Shown here: piece by piece, positions 41,407 to 48,322 of the stretch
Position numbering within the stretch: position 1 is the stretch's first letter
Layout of the letters: each line of letters starts with the position of its first letter
Assembly (NCBI GenBank): GCA_965219085.1
Contig: OZ244720.1
Span: 2,240,001 to 2,304,000, forward strand
Direction of reading: 5' to 3'
Origin: Dehalococcoidia bacterium
GTDB taxonomy: Bacteria; Chloroflexota; Dehalococcoidia; UBA2979
DNA length: 64,000 nt
The notes under the pieces: generated by a model
Database searches by the model: none
Told to the model about the DNA's origin: nothing
The model's input: the letters and a program-made list of their open reading frames with translations, nothing else
Translations under genes and position numbers: made by a program

Positions 41407-42219
41407 TCAGGCCGGGCGGCGTGCGCGCACGGCGTCGACGAGCCGCGGCAGCAACTCCCCGGCCGGGCCGCGCAGGATCACGGTCGCGATGGCCGTGAGC
41501 GCGGTGGGGTCGGGGTCGATCTCGATGAGCGGCACGCCGCGGCGCACGGCGATCTGCGGGAACTCCGCCGCCGGGTACACCTGCGCGGTGGTGCCGATGA
41601 TCATGAACAGGTCGCACTGCAGCGACTCGAGCTGCGAGCGCTGGAGCGCGTACGGCGGGATCGGCTCGCCGAACATCACGCCGTCGCTCTTCACGACGCC
41701 GTTGCAATCTGGCTGGGAGCAGCGAGGCGGCAGGTTCTCGGGGTCGATGGTGACCTCGGCGGCTGGCCAGCGGGAGTGGCAGGCCATGCAGCGCATCCAG
41801 TTCGTGTTGCCGTGGATCTCGGTGAGCGACTCGGTGCCGCCCTGGCGGTGCAGGTCGTCGACGTTCTGCGTGATGACGTGCTGCACCACGCCGATGCGTT
41901 CCAGCTCTGCGAGCGCACGGTGCCCGTCGTTGGGCTGGGCGGCCTCGAGCTTCACGCGGAAGTCGTCCATGTCGGGATCGGGCTGGGCGTCCCGCGCGAT
42001 CTGCTCTTCCCACCAGCTGCGGGGGTCCTCCATGAACTTCTGGTAGCCGTCCATGGCGGGCTCGCCGAGCTTCGTCCACAGGCCGTCCGGCCCGCGGAAG
42101 GTGGGGATGCCGGACTCCTTGGAGATGCCGGCGCCGGTCAGCACGACGTTGTGCGTGGATCCCGCGAGCAGGTCCGCGGCGCGCTCAAGTTCGAGGTCGA
42201 GGTTCGCTGGATCGGCCAC
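41407..42219 (-). CDS. cobB: NAD-dependent deacylase (Sir2 family)
   Basis: TGAGISKESGIPTFRG, ITQNVDDLH, EIHGN, zinc-binding Cys pairs. Confidence 0.92.
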   Translation of the reverse strand: MADPANLDLELERAADLLAGSTHNVVLTGAGISKESGIPTFRGPDGLWTKLGEPAMDGYQKFMEDPRSWWEEQIARDAQPDPDMDDFRVKLEAAQPNDGHRALAELERIGVVQHVITQNVDDLHRQGGTESLTEIHGNTNWMRCMACHSRWPAAEVTIDPENLPPRCSQPDCNGVVKSDGVMFGEPIPPYALQRSQLESLQCDLFMIIGTTAQVYPAAEFPQIAVRRGVPLIEIDPDPTALTAIATVILRGPAGELLPRLVDAVRARRPA

Positions 42220-42358
42220 GGCCCGCCCCCCTGTTGGCTCGCCTGCATCGTAGTAGGCGTTGATCACACTCACAACGCCGGGGGCTCACAACATCGAGGG
42301 CTCGCTGCGCGGACGTGACCTATGCTGGATATGGCGCTCCCGCGATGAAGGAGAGGCG

Positions 42359-43672
42359 ATGCACCTGCGGACCATCCTGTTGGCGATCGGCCTTGTGGCC
42401 GCGGCGCTCCTCGTCGCTTGCAGCGGCGATGACGACGACGCCACCATGATGGAGGAGGACGCCCCGGCTACGGCCTCGCCGGCCGCCTCGCAGGCGGCGG
42501 CAACGGCGACCGCATCGCCGACCGCATCGCTGACGGCGGAGGCCAGCCCGGAGGCGACGCCGGCCGCGACCGCGACGCCCAACCCCTCGGCCGAGGCGGC
42601 GAAGGAGGCGCAGCGCGAGTTGATCGCGCGCCGGCTGCAGGAGGACTTCCCGCTCCTCGACACCACCAGGACGACGATCGACCTCGCGGACATCATCGGC
42701 CTGCTGCCACCCGACGCGATCCCCTCGATCGACGAGCCGAACTTCGACACCGTCGCGGCGGCCGGCGCGTGGCTGCAGGCGCAGGAGCCGGTGATCGCGT
42801 TCGAGCACAACGCCGACGCGCGCGCCTACCCGCTGCACATCCTGACGTGGCACGAGATCGTCAACGACGTCGTCGGCGGCGAGCCGGTGATCGTGACGTA
42901 CTGCCCGCTCTGCAACTCCGCGATCGTGTTCTCGCGCAGCGTGGACGGCGGGGTCCGCGAGTTCGGCACGTCCGGCAAGCTACGCCGCAGCGACTTGATC
43001 ATGTACGACCGCACCAACGAGTCGCTGTGGCAGCAGCTCACGGGCGAGGCCATCGTCGGCGTCGACGCCGGGACCGTGCTCGACTTCCTGCCGGCGCAGA
43101 TCGTGTCGTTCGAGGAGTTCGGCGCGGCCTACCCCGGCGGCATGGTGCTCAACCAGGAGACGGGCCACTTCCGCAACTACGGCCAGAACCCCTACGTCTA
43201 CTACGACACCGGCGACCGCTTCATCGTCGCCGTCCCGGAGTTCGACGATGCACGCCTCGACGCCAAGGAACGCGTGCTGACCGTCGAGGTCAACGGCGAG
43301 GCCGCCGCGTTCGCGTGGCGGGCGCTCAGCGAGCTCGTGGTCATCGAGGCGGCGATCGGCGGCGAGCCGGTCGTGGCGTTCTGGCAGCCGGGCGCGGTCT
43401 CCGCGCTCGACGACGCGTTCATCGTCGGCAGTCGCAACGTCGGCTCGGCCGGCGCGTTCGTGCCGGTGCTCGACGGCGAACGGCTGACGTTCGAGGAGCG
43501 CGACGGCGCCATCGTCGACGTCGGGACGGGCAGCACGTGGAACGTGCTCGGGCAGGCGGTCGAGGGGCCACTGGCCGGATCGCAGCTCGAGCCGGTGGTG
43601 TCGGGCAGCCACTTCTGGTTCGCATGGTCGGTCTTCAAGCCGGAAACGCGCGTGATCCTGACCAGCGGTTAA
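42359..43672 (+). CDS. DUF3179-family lipoprotein
   Basis: LVAC lipobox; DAIPSID, ARAYPL.ILTWHEIVND, TYCPLCNS, MYDRTNESLWQQ, FWFAW. Confidence 0.88.
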   Translation: MHLRTILLAIGLVAAALLVACSGDDDDATMMEEDAPATASPAASQAAATATASPTASLTAEASPEATPAATATPNPSAEAAKEAQRELIARRLQEDFPLLDTTRTTIDLADIIGLLPPDAIPSIDEPNFDTVAAAGAWLQAQEPVIAFEHNADARAYPLHILTWHEIVNDVVGGEPVIVTYCPLCNSAIVFSRSVDGGVREFGTSGKLRRSDLIMYDRTNESLWQQLTGEAIVGVDAGTVLDFLPAQIVSFEEFGAAYPGGMVLNQETGHFRNYGQNPYVYYDTGDRFIVAVPEFDDARLDAKERVLTVEVNGEAAAFAWRALSELVVIEAAIGGEPVVAFWQPGAVSALDDAFIVGSRNVGSAGAFVPVLDGERLTFEERDGAIVDVGTGSTWNVLGQAVEGPLAGSQLEPVVSGSHFWFAWSVFKPETRVILTSG

Positions 43673-43735
43673 CGCTTCGCTGACGCATGGCGAGCATCGA
43701 ACGATAATGATGGTAGTGGCGAAGGGGCACGAGGC

Positions 43736-44452
43736 ATGGAAGAGTCGCAGACGCGGAGGCTGATCCGCTACACCATCGTCGTGGCGATCGTCGTCGTGCT
43801 CGGCGCGCTCTACGTGCAGCGCGAGATCCTCACCGACGACGAGGTCATGGTTGCCGTTCCCCCTCCCGCCCCCACCCAGGCCGCCGACGCGACGGACGAC
43901 GGATCGACGGACGACGATGCGACCGGGGACGGCTCGACTGAGGACAGCGCACGCGGCTCGACGATGGTGGCCGTCGGACTGCTCGACGACCGCCCCGTCG
44001 AGCTGGACGAGTTGGCGCCGGACTTCCGCCTGACGGACCTCGACGGCAGGGTCGTGATGCTCTCCGACTTCCGCGGCAAGACCGTCGTGCTCAACTTCTG
44101 GGCGAGCTGGTGCCCGCCGTGCCGCGAGGAGATGCCGGAGTTCCAGGCGCTCTGGGACGAGCGCGGCGCCGAGGGCTCCGACGACCTCGTGGTGCTTGCC
44201 GTGAACTTCCTCCGCGACGACAGCGTGAGCGCGGCGACGAACTTCATTCAGGCCAACGACTTCACGTTCCCCGTCATCTTCGACACGACACGCGGCGAGG
44301 TCGCCCAGCGCTACGGCGTGCGAGGACTCCCCGCGACGTTCTTCATCGACCGCAACGGCATCGTGCGCACCACGGCACTCGGCCCGGTCTTCGGCAACCT
44401 GCTCGAGACGGGCATCGCGGACGCCGACACCGAGGGGGGCACGGTCCAGTGA
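43736..44452 (+). CDS. Membrane-anchored TlpA/ResA thiol-disulfide oxidoreductase
   Basis: N-terminal TM helix; [31 protein letters not shown]. Confidence 0.92.
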
Positions 44453-44964
44453 TCGGTCGTCCGGCGCGCCGGCTGGGCGCGTTCGCGGCCCTGCTCGCGC
44501 TTGGCGCACTCCTCGCCGTCGCGTGCGGTGACAGCGCATCGGACGGGCAGCTGGCGGAGCGCGCCGGCTCGACGTCCGGCTTCCCCACCGGCCCCGCGGT
44601 GACGGTGCCCGAGGGCTTCCAGGGGCCCGCCGAGGGCGTCGGGTCCACCGGCGCCTGGCTCCCGGACAACGAGCAGCCCACGCTCGTGTTCGTCGATGCG
44701 ATTTGGTGACCGTTCTGCGCTCCGGCGCGGTCCGTCGTGCACGGACTCCGCAATGAGTACCAGGACCGGGTGAACTTCGTCATCCTCGACTACGATGAGG
44801 GCGACGAGCGCTCGCTTGCCGAGCGTCTCGGCGCCGGCTCGCACCCGGCGTACGCGACGGTCACGCCCGGCGCCGGCGAGGTGGTGAGCAGCTTCTTCGG
44901 GCCGGCGCCCGAGGCTCAGTTGCGCGAGGTGCTCGATACACTCATCGCCGAGCACGGCGGATAG
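44449..44964 (+). CDS. Thioredoxin-fold lipoprotein, predicted selenoprotein (UPFC)
   Basis: GTG start overlaps the tlpA stop; LAVAC lipobox; in-frame TGA 44707-44709 in W-U-P-F-C; frame continues to TAG 44964. Confidence 0.85.
44730..44746 (+). promoter_or_regulatory. SECIS-like hairpin 1
   Basis: GTCCGT-cgtgc-ACGGAC at +21 to +37 after the TGA. Confidence 0.7.
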
Positions 44965-44988
44965 CGTGACGGTGGCGACGGGGGTCGC

Positions 44989-46062
44989 ATGTTGAGCGTG
45001 TGGTCGAGGCGGATCCGGTCGTGGGGCGCGCTCGCCGCGCTCGGCCTCGCCGTGGCCGCGCTCGCCGCCTGCACGGGCGACGACGAGGAGCCGGCCGAGC
45101 CGCCGGCCGTCGCCACGCCTGTTGTGACGGCAACGCCCACGACCCCGCCCGCAGCCACACCGTCGCCCACGGCGACGCAGGCGCCTCGGACGACTGCTCC
45201 GGCGACCGCGACCGCGACGGCCACAGCGACGGCGACGGCTACTGAGACCGCGACGGCGACTGCGACAGCCACAGCGCCCAGCGCACCTCCGCCCACCGCG
45301 ACCGCGACTCCGGCCGCGAGGGCCGCCGCACAGCCCTCGCCGACCGCCACGGCCGCGCCGGCCGCGGCGGCGTCGACGGCAACCGCGACGCCCGAGGCGA
45401 CACCCCGACCGCAGCCAACGGCGACCGCCACCCCGGCTCCGACACCCACGCCGCGGCCCACGGCGACTCCACACCCGACAGCGACCGCGACACCGCGGCC
45501 CACAGCGACTCCACGCCCGACAGCGACCGCTGCGCCCACGCCGACCGCGACCTCGACGCCTGCACCTACGCCTCCGCCGACACCCGATCCCACGCCCGAG
45601 CCGACGCCTGACCCCACCCCGGAGCCGACTCCGCAGCCGACGCCTGAACCCACTCCAGAGCCAGAGCCCGAGTACGACTTCCCTACCGGCGAGGCCGTGC
45701 TCGTGGCGGACGACTACGAACCACCGAGCAACTCCCTCGGTTCGACGGGAGCGTGGTTGCCCGCCAACGGGAAGCCGACGTTCGTCGTCGTCGGAGCACA
45801 GTGGTGACCGCACTGCCGCCGTGCAAAGCCCGTCGTGAACGGGCTCCGACTAGAGTTCCAGGACCGGGTGAACTTCGTCATCCTCGATTTGGACCGCGGG
45901 GCCGACCGAAGGTTGGCGCGCACCCTCGGGCTGGCGGGTCACCCGAACTTCGGCACGCTCGCGCCCAACTCGAACGAGGTGGTGCAGGGGCTCTTCTCCG
46001 CACCGCGCAGCGGCGAGTTGCGCGCGATGATCGAGGCGCTCCTGGAGGAGCCCGGCGGGTAG
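44989..46062 (+). CDS. Thioredoxin-fold lipoprotein with long Pro/Thr/Ala stalk, predicted selenoprotein (UPHC)
   Basis: LAAC lipobox; in-frame TGA 45805-45807 in W-U-P-H-C; frame continues to TAG 46062; paralog of the upstream gene. Confidence 0.85.
45828..45844 (+). promoter_or_regulatory. SECIS-like hairpin 2
   Basis: GCCCGT-cgtga-ACGGGC at +21 to +37 after the TGA. Confidence 0.7.
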
Positions 46063-46130
46063 CGCTCGCCACCCTCGCCACCGCGCGCTGCCGGAGGGCC
46101 GCCGACCTGGCGGAGTGCTAGCGTGACGCC

Positions 46131-47069
46131 GTGACTGCCTCGCTCGCACCGATACGCACACGCATGCAGGTACGCGAGTGGGTCGCGCTGCTCGTCGGCG
46201 TGTCGGCGGTGTCCTGGGCGGCGCCGCTCATCCGTCTCGCCGACGCGCCCGCGCTCACGGTCGCGGCCCTGCGCCTCACGTTCGCGGCGATCCCGCTGCT
46301 CGTGCTGGCGCTGCTGCTGCGGCGCGGCGAGTTGCGGACGCTGCGTCGAGGAGATCTGGCGCTGCTCGTGCTGGCGGGACTGTGCATCGGGGCGCACTTC
46401 GGCTTCTGGGTCGCGTCGGTGCAGGACACCTCGCTCGTGGCGAGCACGGCGATCGTCGCGACGCAGCCGCTCTTCGCCGGGGTCGGCGGCTGGCTGCTGC
46501 TCGGCGAGCGGCTCACGAGGTCGCTCATGCTGGGCATCGCGATCGCGGCGGCGGGCGCGCTGCTGCTGGCCGCCGAGGACCTGGGCGAGGCGACCTCGCT
46601 GCGCGGCGACTTCTTCGCACTCCTCGGAGCGGCGTTCGTCGCGGCCTACTTCCTCGCCGGGCGGCGGGCGCGGGCTGGACTCTCGAACGTGAGCTACGCG
46701 GCGATCGTGAACAGCGTCGGCGCCTGCGCGCTGCTGCTGACGCTGACGCTGAGTGGCGGCTCGCCGGTGGGGCACGAGGGCGACGCGTACGTGTTCATCG
46801 TGCTGCTGGCGCTCGTGCCGCAGCTGATCGGGCACGGCTCGCTGACGTGGGCGCTCGGGTCGCTGCCCGCCGTGGTGGTGACCGTGGCCGCGCTCGGCGA
46901 GCCCGTCGGGGCGGCCGCGATCGGCGCCACGCTGCTCGATGAGCCGCCTACACTCGTGGAACTGATCGGGGCAGCCGTGCTGCTCTGCGGCGTATATGTG
47001 GCGCTGCGTGGCGGGCCGGGCGTCGCGCTCGGCGCAGCGCCGCCACGTGGAAGCGAGGGGACGCAATGA
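46131..47069 (+). CDS. DMT/EamA family transporter
   Basis: About 10 hydrophobic segments in two repeats; LLGER, LGEPVGA. Confidence 0.88.
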   Translation: MTASLAPIRTRMQVREWVALLVGVSAVSWAAPLIRLADAPALTVAALRLTFAAIPLLVLALLLRRGELRTLRRGDLALLVLAGLCIGAHFGFWVASVQDTSLVASTAIVATQPLFAGVGGWLLLGERLTRSLMLGIAIAAAGALLLAAEDLGEATSLRGDFFALLGAAFVAAYFLAGRRARAGLSNVSYAAIVNSVGACALLLTLTLSGGSPVGHEGDAYVFIVLLALVPQLIGHGSLTWALGSLPAVVVTVAALGEPVGAAAIGATLLDEPPTLVELIGAAVLLCGVYVALRGGPGVALGAAPPRGSEGTQ

Positions 47070-48322
47070 CCGAGGACACGACGGGCCCGAACGCCGCGAA
47101 CGGCGGCCCGCTCGCGGGCGTGCGCGTGCTCGACCTCAGCTGGGTGCTCGCCGGGCCGTACTGCACGATGGTCCTCGCGGACCTCGGCGCCGACGTGGTG
47201 AAGTGCGAGCGCCCGCCATTCGGCGACGTCGCGCGCACCACGGGCCCGCTCGTCGACGGCGAGTCCGGCTACTTCTTCAGCATCAACCGCGGCAAGCGCA
47301 GCATCGCCATCGACCTCAAGCTCGAGGCCGGCCGCGACCTGTTCCTGCGGCTCGTGCCAGAGTTCGACGTGATCGTCGAGAACTTTCGCCCGGGCACCCT
47401 CGAACGGCTCGGGCTCGGCTACGAGCAGCTCGCCGAGGTGCACCCGAAGCTCGTCTACCTCGCCATCTCCGGTTACGGGCAGACTGGGCCGATGCGCGAC
47501 CGGCCGGCCCTCGACGTGGTCGTGCAGGGCGCGGGTGGCGTGATGTCGATCACCGGCGAGCCGGGCGGTCCGCCGATCCGGCCGGGGCTCTCGCTGGGCG
47601 ACATCGCCGGCGGGCTGTTCGGCGCGATCGGCGTGCTGTCCGCGCTGCGTGAGCGCGACCAGTCCGGCCTCGGCCAGTTCGTCGACGTCTCGATGCTCGA
47701 CTGCCAGCTCGCGGTCCTCGAGAACGCGTTCCTGCGCTACCACCTCACGGGTGAGACGCCGCAGCCGATGGGCACGAGGCACTCGTGGGCGGTGCCGTTC
47801 CAGGCGTTCCCGACGGCCGACGGGCATCTCGTGATCGCGCTCGCGTGGGGCGTCCCCAACCAGTGGGCATTGCTGTGCTCCGAGCTCGGCCTCGTCGAGC
47901 TCATCGACGACCCCCGGTTCGCCGCGAGCCACCAGCGCTCCGCCAACCACGCTGAGCTGGAACCGCTGCTCAACGAGGCGTTCCGCACGCGCACCACGGC
48001 GGACTGGCTGGAACGCCTCGAGCCCTACGGCATCCCGTGCGGGCCGGTGAACAACATCGCCGAGGCGGCCGCGCACCCGCAGGTGGCGGCGCGCGAGATG
48101 CTGGTGCCAGTCGAGCACCCGGAGCTCGGCACGCTGCCGCTGGTCAGCACGCCGGTGAAGCTCTCACGCACGCCGGGTGGCATCCGCGGGGCATCGCCGG
48201 ACATGGGTGAGCACTCGCGCGAAGTGCTCGCCGAGCGACTCGGGCTGGATGCCGGGGAGGTCGACGCACTGATCGCGGGGCAGATCGTGTGGGAGGAGCG
48301 CCCGCCGGTCGATCTGGGATGA
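47066..48322 (+). CDS. CaiB/BaiF CoA-transferase
   Basis: PLAGVRVLDLS..LAGPY, NRGKRSI, ENFRPG, GYGQTGP. Confidence 0.93.
   Translation: MTEDTTGPNAANGGPLAGVRVLDLSWVLAGPYCTMVLADLGADVVKCERPPFGDVARTTGPLVDGESGYFFSINRGKRSIAIDLKLEAGRDLFLRLVPEFDVIVENFRPGTLERLGLGYEQLAEVHPKLVYLAISGYGQTGPMRDRPALDVVVQGAGGVMSITGEPGGPPIRPGLSLGDIAGGLFGAIGVLSALRERDQSGLGQFVDVSMLDCQLAVLENAFLRYHLTGETPQPMGTRHSWAVPFQAFPTADGHLVIALAWGVPNQWALLCSELGLVELIDDPRFAASHQRSANHAELEPLLNEAFRTRTTADWLERLEPYGIPCGPVNNIAEAAAHPQVAAREMLVPVEHPELGTLPLVSTPVKLSRTPGGIRGASPDMGEHSREVLAERLGLDAGEVDALIAGQIVWEERPPVDLG

Follow-up and report, generated by a model that had tools for sequence, protein, structure and literature searches.

The window analysed here, a stretch of 64,000 nucleotides (nt) from a Dehalococcoidia bacterium (contig OZ244720.1, positions 2,240,001 to 2,304,000 of the forward strand), belongs to a genome that consists of one contig of 3.3 Mb. 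It contains two tandem genes, gene A and gene B, which are both interrupted by an in-frame TGA codon at the position of the first cysteine of a thioredoxin active site. It is very probable that both are genuine selenoprotein genes, the UGA being decoded as selenocysteine (Sec, U) via SelB and a hairpin that follows the codon. The two genes and their UGA codons are:

44449–44964, + strand: gene A, GTG start, predicted 171-residue Sec-containing thioredoxin-fold prolipoprotein with the motif W-U-P-F-C (Pfam Thioredoxin 24.1 bits)
44707–44709, + strand: UGA of gene A, predicted to be read as Sec (residue U87, context DAIW-U-PFC)
44989–46062, + strand: gene B, ATG start, predicted 357-residue Sec-containing thioredoxin-fold prolipoprotein with a long linker and the motif W-U-P-H-C (Pfam Thioredoxin 28.0 bits)
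45805–45807, + strand: UGA of gene B, predicted to be read as Sec (residue U273, context GAQW-U-PHC)

Under translation table 11 each gene falls into two open reading frames, 44110–44709 and 44737–44964 in the case of gene A, and 44989–45807 and 45835–46062 in the case of gene B. This split had already been noted in a preliminary description made from the sequence alone, which had also pointed out IW-TGA-PFC at 44707 and QW-TGA-PHC at 45805 and had quoted two homologous 21-residue segments downstream of the codons; the sequence agreed with it in all three respects. The read-through products of the two genes align gap-free over 127 residues at 50% identity (E 4e-42), and 24 nt separate the end of gene A from the start of gene B.

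Conservation of the UGA, the hairpin and the selenocysteine machinery

The TGA codons were found to be strictly conserved. In the related genomes 48 matches scored 100 bits or more, and every one of them had an in-frame TGA, 46 a single one and two of them two. These matches came from 22 of 41 related genomes, i.e. from the genome of the window, all 18 other genomes of its genus and three further genera of the family, with two to four mostly tandem copies per genome. The next-best match reached 33.9 bits and was an ordinary thioredoxin without a stop codon. The orthologues of gene A (73–87% identity) carried the TGA in every case. In an alignment of 40 domain copies from 20 fetched loci, the TGA fell on a single column in all 40 copies, where U-x-x-C begins, and none had Cys at this position; such a shared column exceeds chance by far. 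When 401 genomes sampled evenly across the class were searched, with 10 candidates scored per genome, family members (E ≤ 1e-20) appeared in 15 genomes, all from one taxonomic family: apart from the genome of the window, 14 of the 25 genomes of that family were positive, compared with 0 of the 375 genomes elsewhere, and the TGA was present in all 26 matches. A pattern scan with one genome per species retrieved 41 loci, all of which were titled Dehalococcoidia, Dehalococcoides or Chloroflexi/Chloroflexota metagenome-assembled genomes.

The coding sequence downstream of the TGA is under purifying selection. In 11 orthologue pairs the ratio of non-synonymous to synonymous substitution rates (dN/dS) was 0.14–0.50 downstream of the codon, similar to the 0.13–0.59 upstream of it. 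The invariant columns past the TGA are, in domain numbering, C47, V54, L57, R58, Q62, N66, F67, V68, L70, P90 and L115.

Two further types of TGA-bearing genes were observed. In gene-B-type copies of two relatives (L019:747-806 on the minus strand, and the first copy of L073; relatives G016 and G003) the active site reads Y-U-P-H-U. In these copies the codon of the resolving Cys is also TGA, 9 nt past the first one, and the same hairpin lies downstream; a diselenide active site is possible. In addition, three of the ten AhpC/TSA-type matches in the genome of the window, all of them outside the window, have one in-frame TGA (G000:C1:2217412-2217807, minus strand; C1:1329863-1330231, plus strand; C1:1740600-1740938, plus strand), and they are candidates for further peroxiredoxin-like (Prx-like) selenoproteins.

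Both UGA codons are followed by a hairpin of the selenocysteine insertion sequence (SECIS) type, which consists of a 7-bp stem and a 5-nt CGUGM loop and begins 19 nt past the UGA:

44729–44747, + strand: SECIS-type hairpin of gene A, GGUCCGU-CGUGC-ACGGACU (stem 44729–44735 / 44741–44747, loop CGUGC 44736–44740)
45827–45845, + strand: SECIS-type hairpin of gene B, AGCCCGU-CGUGA-ACGGGCU (stem 45827–45833 / 45839–45845, loop CGUGA 45834–45838)

The helix was predicted with RNAalifold from an alignment of 35 distinct 60-mers downstream of the UGA (alignment A1), in which 99.2% of the 245 cells were paired. Double, compensatory changes occurred at four of the seven stem pairs (19 cells), and none of 500 shuffles matched the observed pairing or covariation score. 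When the register was slid, six alternative registers were paired to only 5.7–54.7%. The loop nucleotides C30, G31 and U32 were invariant. Several of the compensatory pairs combine a synonymous change on one side with an amino-acid change on the other, e.g., CCC to CCU with GGG to AGG, and this therefore points to selection on the RNA. An extra 3-bp lower stem proposed by RNAalifold (columns 10-12 / 19-21) showed zero double changes and was not counted as part of the element.

Cys forms of the genes served as a natural control. Among 41 further loci with 65 domain matches, 64 of which covered the active-site column, 62 matches had TGA and two had TGC (L059 and L062). The pooled sets comprised 102 copies with 60 distinct 60-mers, 58 of them with TGA and two with TGC. 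Of the 58 TGA forms, 49 formed all seven pairs, eight formed six, and one (L077), whose fold is shifted in register and contains a bulge, formed four; the folding energies of the TGA forms ranged from -4.4 to -17 kcal/mol. The TGC forms L059 and L062 retained only 2/7 and 3/7 pairs, with energies of -1.9 and -3.5 kcal/mol. The hairpin is thus kept in the TGA forms and decayed in the Cys forms. Cys was also found opposite U87 in all 12 full-length public homologues. A quick maximum-likelihood tree from a short alignment of 87 rows and 127 columns, with two distant Cys lipoproteins as outgroup, placed the Cys forms in three groups nested among Sec forms, and its deepest branches were all Sec. 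Gene A fell into a clade of 13 rows (support 97) and gene B into one of 17 rows (support 99), and the topology suggests an old duplication and secondary replacement of Sec by Cys.

The genome that contains genes A and B also encodes the complete Sec machinery, and selC, selA, selB and selD all exceeded the curated cut-offs. The tRNA-Sec scored 73.7 bits, above the Rfam cut-off, and was called tRNA-SeC with the anticodon TCA by ARAGORN; a tRNA search of the 64-kb window found none, and the gene lies elsewhere in the genome. SelA was found with 451 bits, the winged-helix domain of SelB with 57.7 bits, and SelD with 366 bits. The selD gene has a single in-frame TGA of its own (...SCGG-U-AGK). Its UGA (L011:1531-1600, G000:C1) is followed by two hairpins, the second of which has a stem of 7 bp with GUG as its loop (+37-39); this is the same trinucleotide as in the thioredoxin genes, in one example only. 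In the vicinity of genes A and B, TGA is the ordinary stop codon of the adjoining TlpA-like, EamA and CoA-transferase genes, and therefore the code is not reassigned genome-wide.

Several expectations of the preliminary description were borne out by these analyses. It had presumed a 3′ SECIS, and a hairpin with covariation follows each UGA. Its argument that the same TGA in two diverged paralogs speaks against nonsense decay held for the 40 aligned copies and the 48 strong matches, and the checks it had proposed for selA, selB, selC and selD, for Cys-containing homologues at the TGA and for conservation downstream of it were all positive.

The public protein sets reflect the interruption of the genes. 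A profile search of 1.84 billion representatives yielded 3,111 proteins at E ≤ 1e-3 and three at E ≤ 1e-30. Among the best 150 of the 3,111, 31 have their last residue immediately before the U and 11 have their first around profile position 54, because gene callers stop at the TGA. Of the full-length proteins, Cys forms matched the profile best. A second protein search retrieved 21 proteins, eight of them full-length at 46–57% identity and 13 N-terminal stubs. In the protein sets searched, no full-length entry was present at the orthologue level of 73–87% identity. The full-length Cys homologues are named 'TlpA family protein disulfide reductase' (NCBI) or 'thiol-disulfide isomerase/thioredoxin' (JGI) by their sources. 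Two of the best full-length matches, P0005 (907 residues) and P0008 (601 residues), are membrane proteins that carry, after an N-terminal multi-pass domain, as many as six thioredoxin repeats in tandem (C-E/D-F-C).

Thioredoxin fold, probable lipid anchor and gene neighbourhood

The AlphaFold2 model of the 128-residue domain had a mean predicted local distance difference test score (pLDDT) of 91.1 and a predicted template modelling score (pTM) of 0.88. The order of its elements is beta-alpha-beta-alpha-beta-beta-alpha (strand 35–40, helix 47–61, strand 66–71, helix 75–83, strands 91–95 and 102–107, helix 112–126), U44 is located where helix 1 begins, and strand 91–95 is preceded by the invariant P90. 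The top Foldseek matches were all classical thioredoxins (E about 1e-6, 22–28% identity). Each product is thus confidently modelled with a minimal thioredoxin fold, as the preliminary description had proposed. At the level of sequence families, Thioredoxin_2 (PF13098) was matched with 22.1 and 23.0 bits, under its cut-off of 27, and a Pfam scan of both proteins gave no match to AhpC-TSA (PF00578) or Redoxin (PF08534) at E ≤ 0.1 and none to DsbA (PF01323). An NCBIfam scan (E ≤ 0.1) returned only weak generic thioredoxin, PDI or DsbE matches far under the cut-offs and no selenoprotein-specific family (e.g., SaoT NF040730, HUIPC NF047660, VPGUxxT NF041383 or Trx7/PDZ NF041199, whose presence in the release was unconfirmed).

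Features at the N-termini suggest that both products are exported and lipidated:

44449–44526, + strand: putative signal peptide and lipobox of gene A (…LLAVA-C26; from the translation, with A at position -3 in place of the classical L)
44989–45072, + strand: putative signal peptide and lipobox of gene B (L-A-A-C28; from the translation, read by eye)
45073–45678, + strand: Pro/Thr/Ala-rich low-complexity linker of gene B, about 200 residues between the predicted lipid anchor and the thioredoxin domain, which starts at F231

The lipobox Cys was nearly invariant in 13 homologues (alignment A3), and the genome encodes Lgt (173.9 bits) and LspA (125.4 bits). The earlier proposal that the proteins are lipoproteins is in line with the putative signal peptides, the lipobox Cys and the presence of both enzymes, and a lipid anchor is probable. 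In contigs of other samples the linker of gene B was found with in-frame length variants, an insertion of 6 nt after 45201 and a deletion of 3 nt at 45243, and it was also the landing site of many partial matches from other organisms.

The genes are surrounded by the following features:

42260–43672, + strand: DUF3179 lipoprotein, Cys form with YCPLC (Pfam DUF3179 335 bits), syntenic neighbour
43680–43708, + strand: promoter-like site upstream of the TlpA-like gene, the only match to a sigma-70-like consensus in 42000–47200 (shuffles 0.1)
43736–44452, + strand: membrane-anchored TlpA/ResA-like thiol:disulfide oxidoreductase, Cys form with WCPPC (Pfam AhpC-TSA 105.4 bits, Redoxin 102 bits)
46131–47069, + strand: EamA-family transporter (Pfam EamA 109 bits), syntenic downstream neighbour

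Gene A begins with a GTG that shares nucleotides with the TGA stop codon of the TlpA-like gene (GTGA, 44449–44452), which suggests translational coupling of the two genes. Since 42000–47200 holds a single promoter-like site, which lies upstream of the TlpA-like gene, and no terminator-like site, an operon of the TlpA-like gene, gene A and gene B is plausible. The order DUF3179, TlpA-like gene, Sec-thioredoxin array and EamA recurs in related loci. Within 3 kb of flanking sequence, a TlpA-like gene was present in 21 of 41 loci, DUF3179 in 15 and EamA in 21, the latter including the most divergent loci. The DUF3179 neighbour and its two paralogues (G000:C1:3119372-3120331 and C1:450433-451386) are all Cys forms without TGA, and literature naming DUF3179, judged at listing level, gave no lead to its function. 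The genome also encodes a membrane electron carrier of the CcdA/DsbD_TM type and a VKOR homologue. In the active-site region of the TlpA-like gene (44024–44185) the summed depth of metagenome contigs was raised 20- to 40-fold, and many short contigs end there; this peak probably represents conserved parts of homologues from other organisms and not copy number.

Weighing of alternative explanations

One explanation of the interrupted frames is that the two genes are pseudogenes or assembly errors, with nonsense TGA codons in former CxxC thioredoxin genes, and the split under table 11 and the existence of Cys-form homologues would fit this. However, nonsense codons would not be expected in one column in 40 of 40 copies and in all 48 strong and all 26 class-sample matches, the region downstream has the low dN/dS values given above, and a covarying hairpin follows the TGA. 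Furthermore, contigs of two other studies span the TGAs, and there was no change at these codons among the matches listed (40 of 125). This explanation is effectively refuted, and its probability was estimated to be practically nil. A second possibility is that the UGA is translated, by a changed code or by near-cognate suppression, as Cys, Trp or Gly and not as Sec. The frame stays open past the TGA and is conserved there, homologues with Cys at the site exist, and the sequence cannot tell which residue is inserted. Yet TGA terminates the adjoining TlpA-like, EamA and CoA-transferase genes and the genome has a complete Sec machinery. Moreover, a hairpin that is kept with TGA and lost with TGC is the prediction for a SelB element, unlike plain suppression, so that a standard residue at this position appears very improbable.

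The third alternative is that the UGA mostly terminates translation, that short N-terminal lipopeptides, separately started C-terminal fragments or both are the functional products, and that Sec insertion is rare or regulatory. Internal GTG codons are present past each TGA (44737 and 45835), and stubs of this kind were made by gene callers, as described above (31 and 11 in the best 150 of 3,111 proteins, 13 of 21 in the second search). In contrast, the fold requires both halves, because in the model the part ahead of the break holds strand 1 and the U and the part behind it holds helices 1 to 3, and the U-x-x-C motif itself straddles the break. In addition, the Cys forms are single full-length proteins, and the GTG at 44737, which is no obvious start, represents the second Val codon within the loop of the hairpin. 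Only a very small chance was therefore given to predominant termination.

Several observations weigh against a selenoprotein pair of the proposed kind. Many of the copies are close kin, and kinship inflates the counts and the shuffle statistics; the slid-register control and the comparison with the Cys forms are free of this inflation. The single-sequence folding energies were unremarkable in comparison with shuffles (z -0.2 to -1.2), and the minimum-energy fold of 70 nt of gene B was another structure and not the hairpin. Energy failed to single out the hairpin, and therefore support was taken from the covariation. The Pfam Thioredoxin scores of 24.1 and 28.0 bits barely clear the cut-off of 23.5, and the lipobox of gene A, A-V-A-C, is non-classical. 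Contigs of the RNA-library run X22, which contained 6% of the sampled words and came from a relative with about 94% identity, covered 43938–44622, 44780–44997 and 45012–45182. They flank the UGA of gene A, and none bridges 44707 or reaches 45805; carry-over of DNA is possible, and these contigs are neutral on read-through, i.e. no evidence either way. Finally, the redox partner and the direction of electron flow were deduced from the gene order alone.

The UGA positions, the hairpins with their covariation, the Sec machinery, the association of the hairpin with Sec but not with Cys forms, the downstream purifying selection and the fold were computed directly here. Decoding of both UGA codons as Sec via SelB and the hairpin is held with high confidence, and selenium is predicted to be inserted at U87 and U273.

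Possible function and relation to known selenoproteins

On the basis of Sec insertion, the following mechanism is proposed. When the ribosome reaches the UGA at 44707 or 45805, the hairpin would bind SelB with GTP and Sec-tRNA(Sec), and Sec would be inserted in place of termination. The full-length prolipoproteins would be exported via the general secretion pathway, and Lgt and LspA would lipidate Cys26 of the gene A product or Cys28 of the gene B product. The mature proteins would be anchored on the outside of the cytoplasmic membrane, that of gene B on its Pro/Thr-rich linker of about 200 residues. Because U-x-x-C is located at the N-terminus of helix 1, the selenol is expected to attack substrate disulfides and then to pair with the resolving Cys in a selenylsulfide. 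Thiol-disulfide exchange outside the cytoplasm, acting on external substrates or on exported proteins, would be the most likely role. The probable reductant would be the co-oriented TlpA-like protein, fed by CcdA; it was proposed as the recycler because of the gene order and the overlap of start and stop codon. An oxidative role may also be considered, given the DsbA-like P-H dipeptide in gene B and the VKOR homologue. It is conceivable, though unlikely, that the tandem Sec-thioredoxins form a lineage-specific, selenium-dependent cell-surface redox module together with the TlpA-like and the DUF3179 protein in a group of Dehalococcoidia that, like Chloroflexota in general, is probably single-membrane, that this module would act on external or envelope substrates and not in routine folding, and that its use of Sec would go back to the ancestor and be nearly obligatory.

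Genes A and B extend a known class. Selenoproteins with a thioredoxin fold and a UxxC motif have been catalogued since 2005, including thioredoxin (Trx), thiol:disulfide interchange, thiol-disulfide isomerase-like, DsbA-like, DsbG-like and Prx-like proteins, the latter including UxxU (Tables 1 and 3 of PMC1088965 and Table 1 of PMC13188914). The table in PMC13188914 rates Sec-containing Trx (PF00085, UxxC) as experimentally verified and lists DUF3179 as a selenoprotein family (UxxC/T) in other organisms. The bacterial SECIS is described as a stem-loop directly after the UGA, within the coding region, with a small apical loop that contains a guanosine (PMC1088965), and Dehalococcoidia genomes with 46 and 49 selenoproteins are given in the BSepDB paper (PMC13326102).

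In comparison with Sec-Trx, the thioredoxin fold, Sec at the attacking position, a SECIS inside the coding region and the existence of Cys homologues are shared. In contrast to the cytoplasmic Sec-Trx, the products of genes A and B are predicted to be exported prolipoproteins, and a conserved extension of about 35 residues (FPTGPAV…STGA…NGKPT) precedes strand 1. Their Pfam score is marginal, and in the genomes searched the family is limited to one Dehalococcoidia family. The family's motif takes the form W-U-P/Q-x-C, where the aligned copies have F, H, S, T, N, A or Q at x, and it lacks the dipeptide of canonical Trx. The catalogued thiol:disulfide interchange and isomerase-like selenoproteins, which were compared by description only, have in common with the present family the UxxC fold, the predicted thiol-disulfide exchange and the occurrence in marine metagenomes; differences are that AhpC-TSA and Redoxin are not matched here and that PF13098 remains below its cut-off.

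With TlpA, ResA and CcmG the proteins would share an extracytoplasmic, membrane-tethered location and a redox motif with two-residue spacing, and they are encoded next to a TlpA-like gene. However, they have Sec and not Cys, a probable lipid anchor and not a transmembrane helix, and neither PF00578 nor PF08534 matches them, in contrast to the neighbour with its more than 100 bits. TlpA-type proteins carry an extra insert, and the model of the domain has the minimal fold only. DsbA, which has the inner active-site dipeptide P-H that is also found in U-P-H-C of gene B, acts outside the cytoplasm, as is predicted for the gene B product, and the VKOR homologue could serve an oxidative pathway; however, the helical insertion domain of DsbA is absent from the plain 128-residue fold, and PF01323 was not matched. 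The hairpins resemble the bacterial SECIS, with fdhF of E. coli as its archetype, in being stem-loops in the coding region after the UGA with a small apical loop that contains G. They differ in having a sequence of their own with a 7-bp stem and a 5-nt CGUGM loop, and a consensus without a bulged nucleotide, L077 fitting only with a bulge.

Distinctive features of the family are the near-exclusive use of Sec, the restriction to one Dehalococcoidia family among the genomes searched, tandem paralogues each with its own SECIS, the probable lipid anchor, the rare U-x-x-U and the Cys forms with decayed hairpins. No description of the family was found in literature on selenoproteins combined with Dehalococcoidia, SAR202 or Chloroflexota or with lipobox or lipoprotein, a comparison that left BSepDB and supplements outside. 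Similarly, among 12 of 4,762 results on selenoprotein or selenocysteine combined with lipobox or bacterial lipoprotein, none described a lipid-anchored bacterial selenoprotein, and the available parts of a 2026 review do not mention the periplasm or secreted, exported or membrane-anchored selenoproteins.

The general knowledge of how selenoproteins work is unchanged by genes A and B. In these genomes the Sec forms are missed or miscalled, because the protein sets searched hold only N- and C-terminal stubs of them, and only the rarer Cys forms appear as full-length, named proteins. The dozens of Sec copies, the compensatory changes in the hairpin and the Cys forms with decayed hairpins constitute a comparative data set that is useful for defining the recognition by SelB in this group and for studying the replacement of Sec by Cys. 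Taken together, the two genes add to the view of Dehalococcoidia as rich in selenoproteins (PMC13326102), and they suggest that, in a widespread and mostly uncultured group, redox chemistry outside the cytoplasm depends on selenium.

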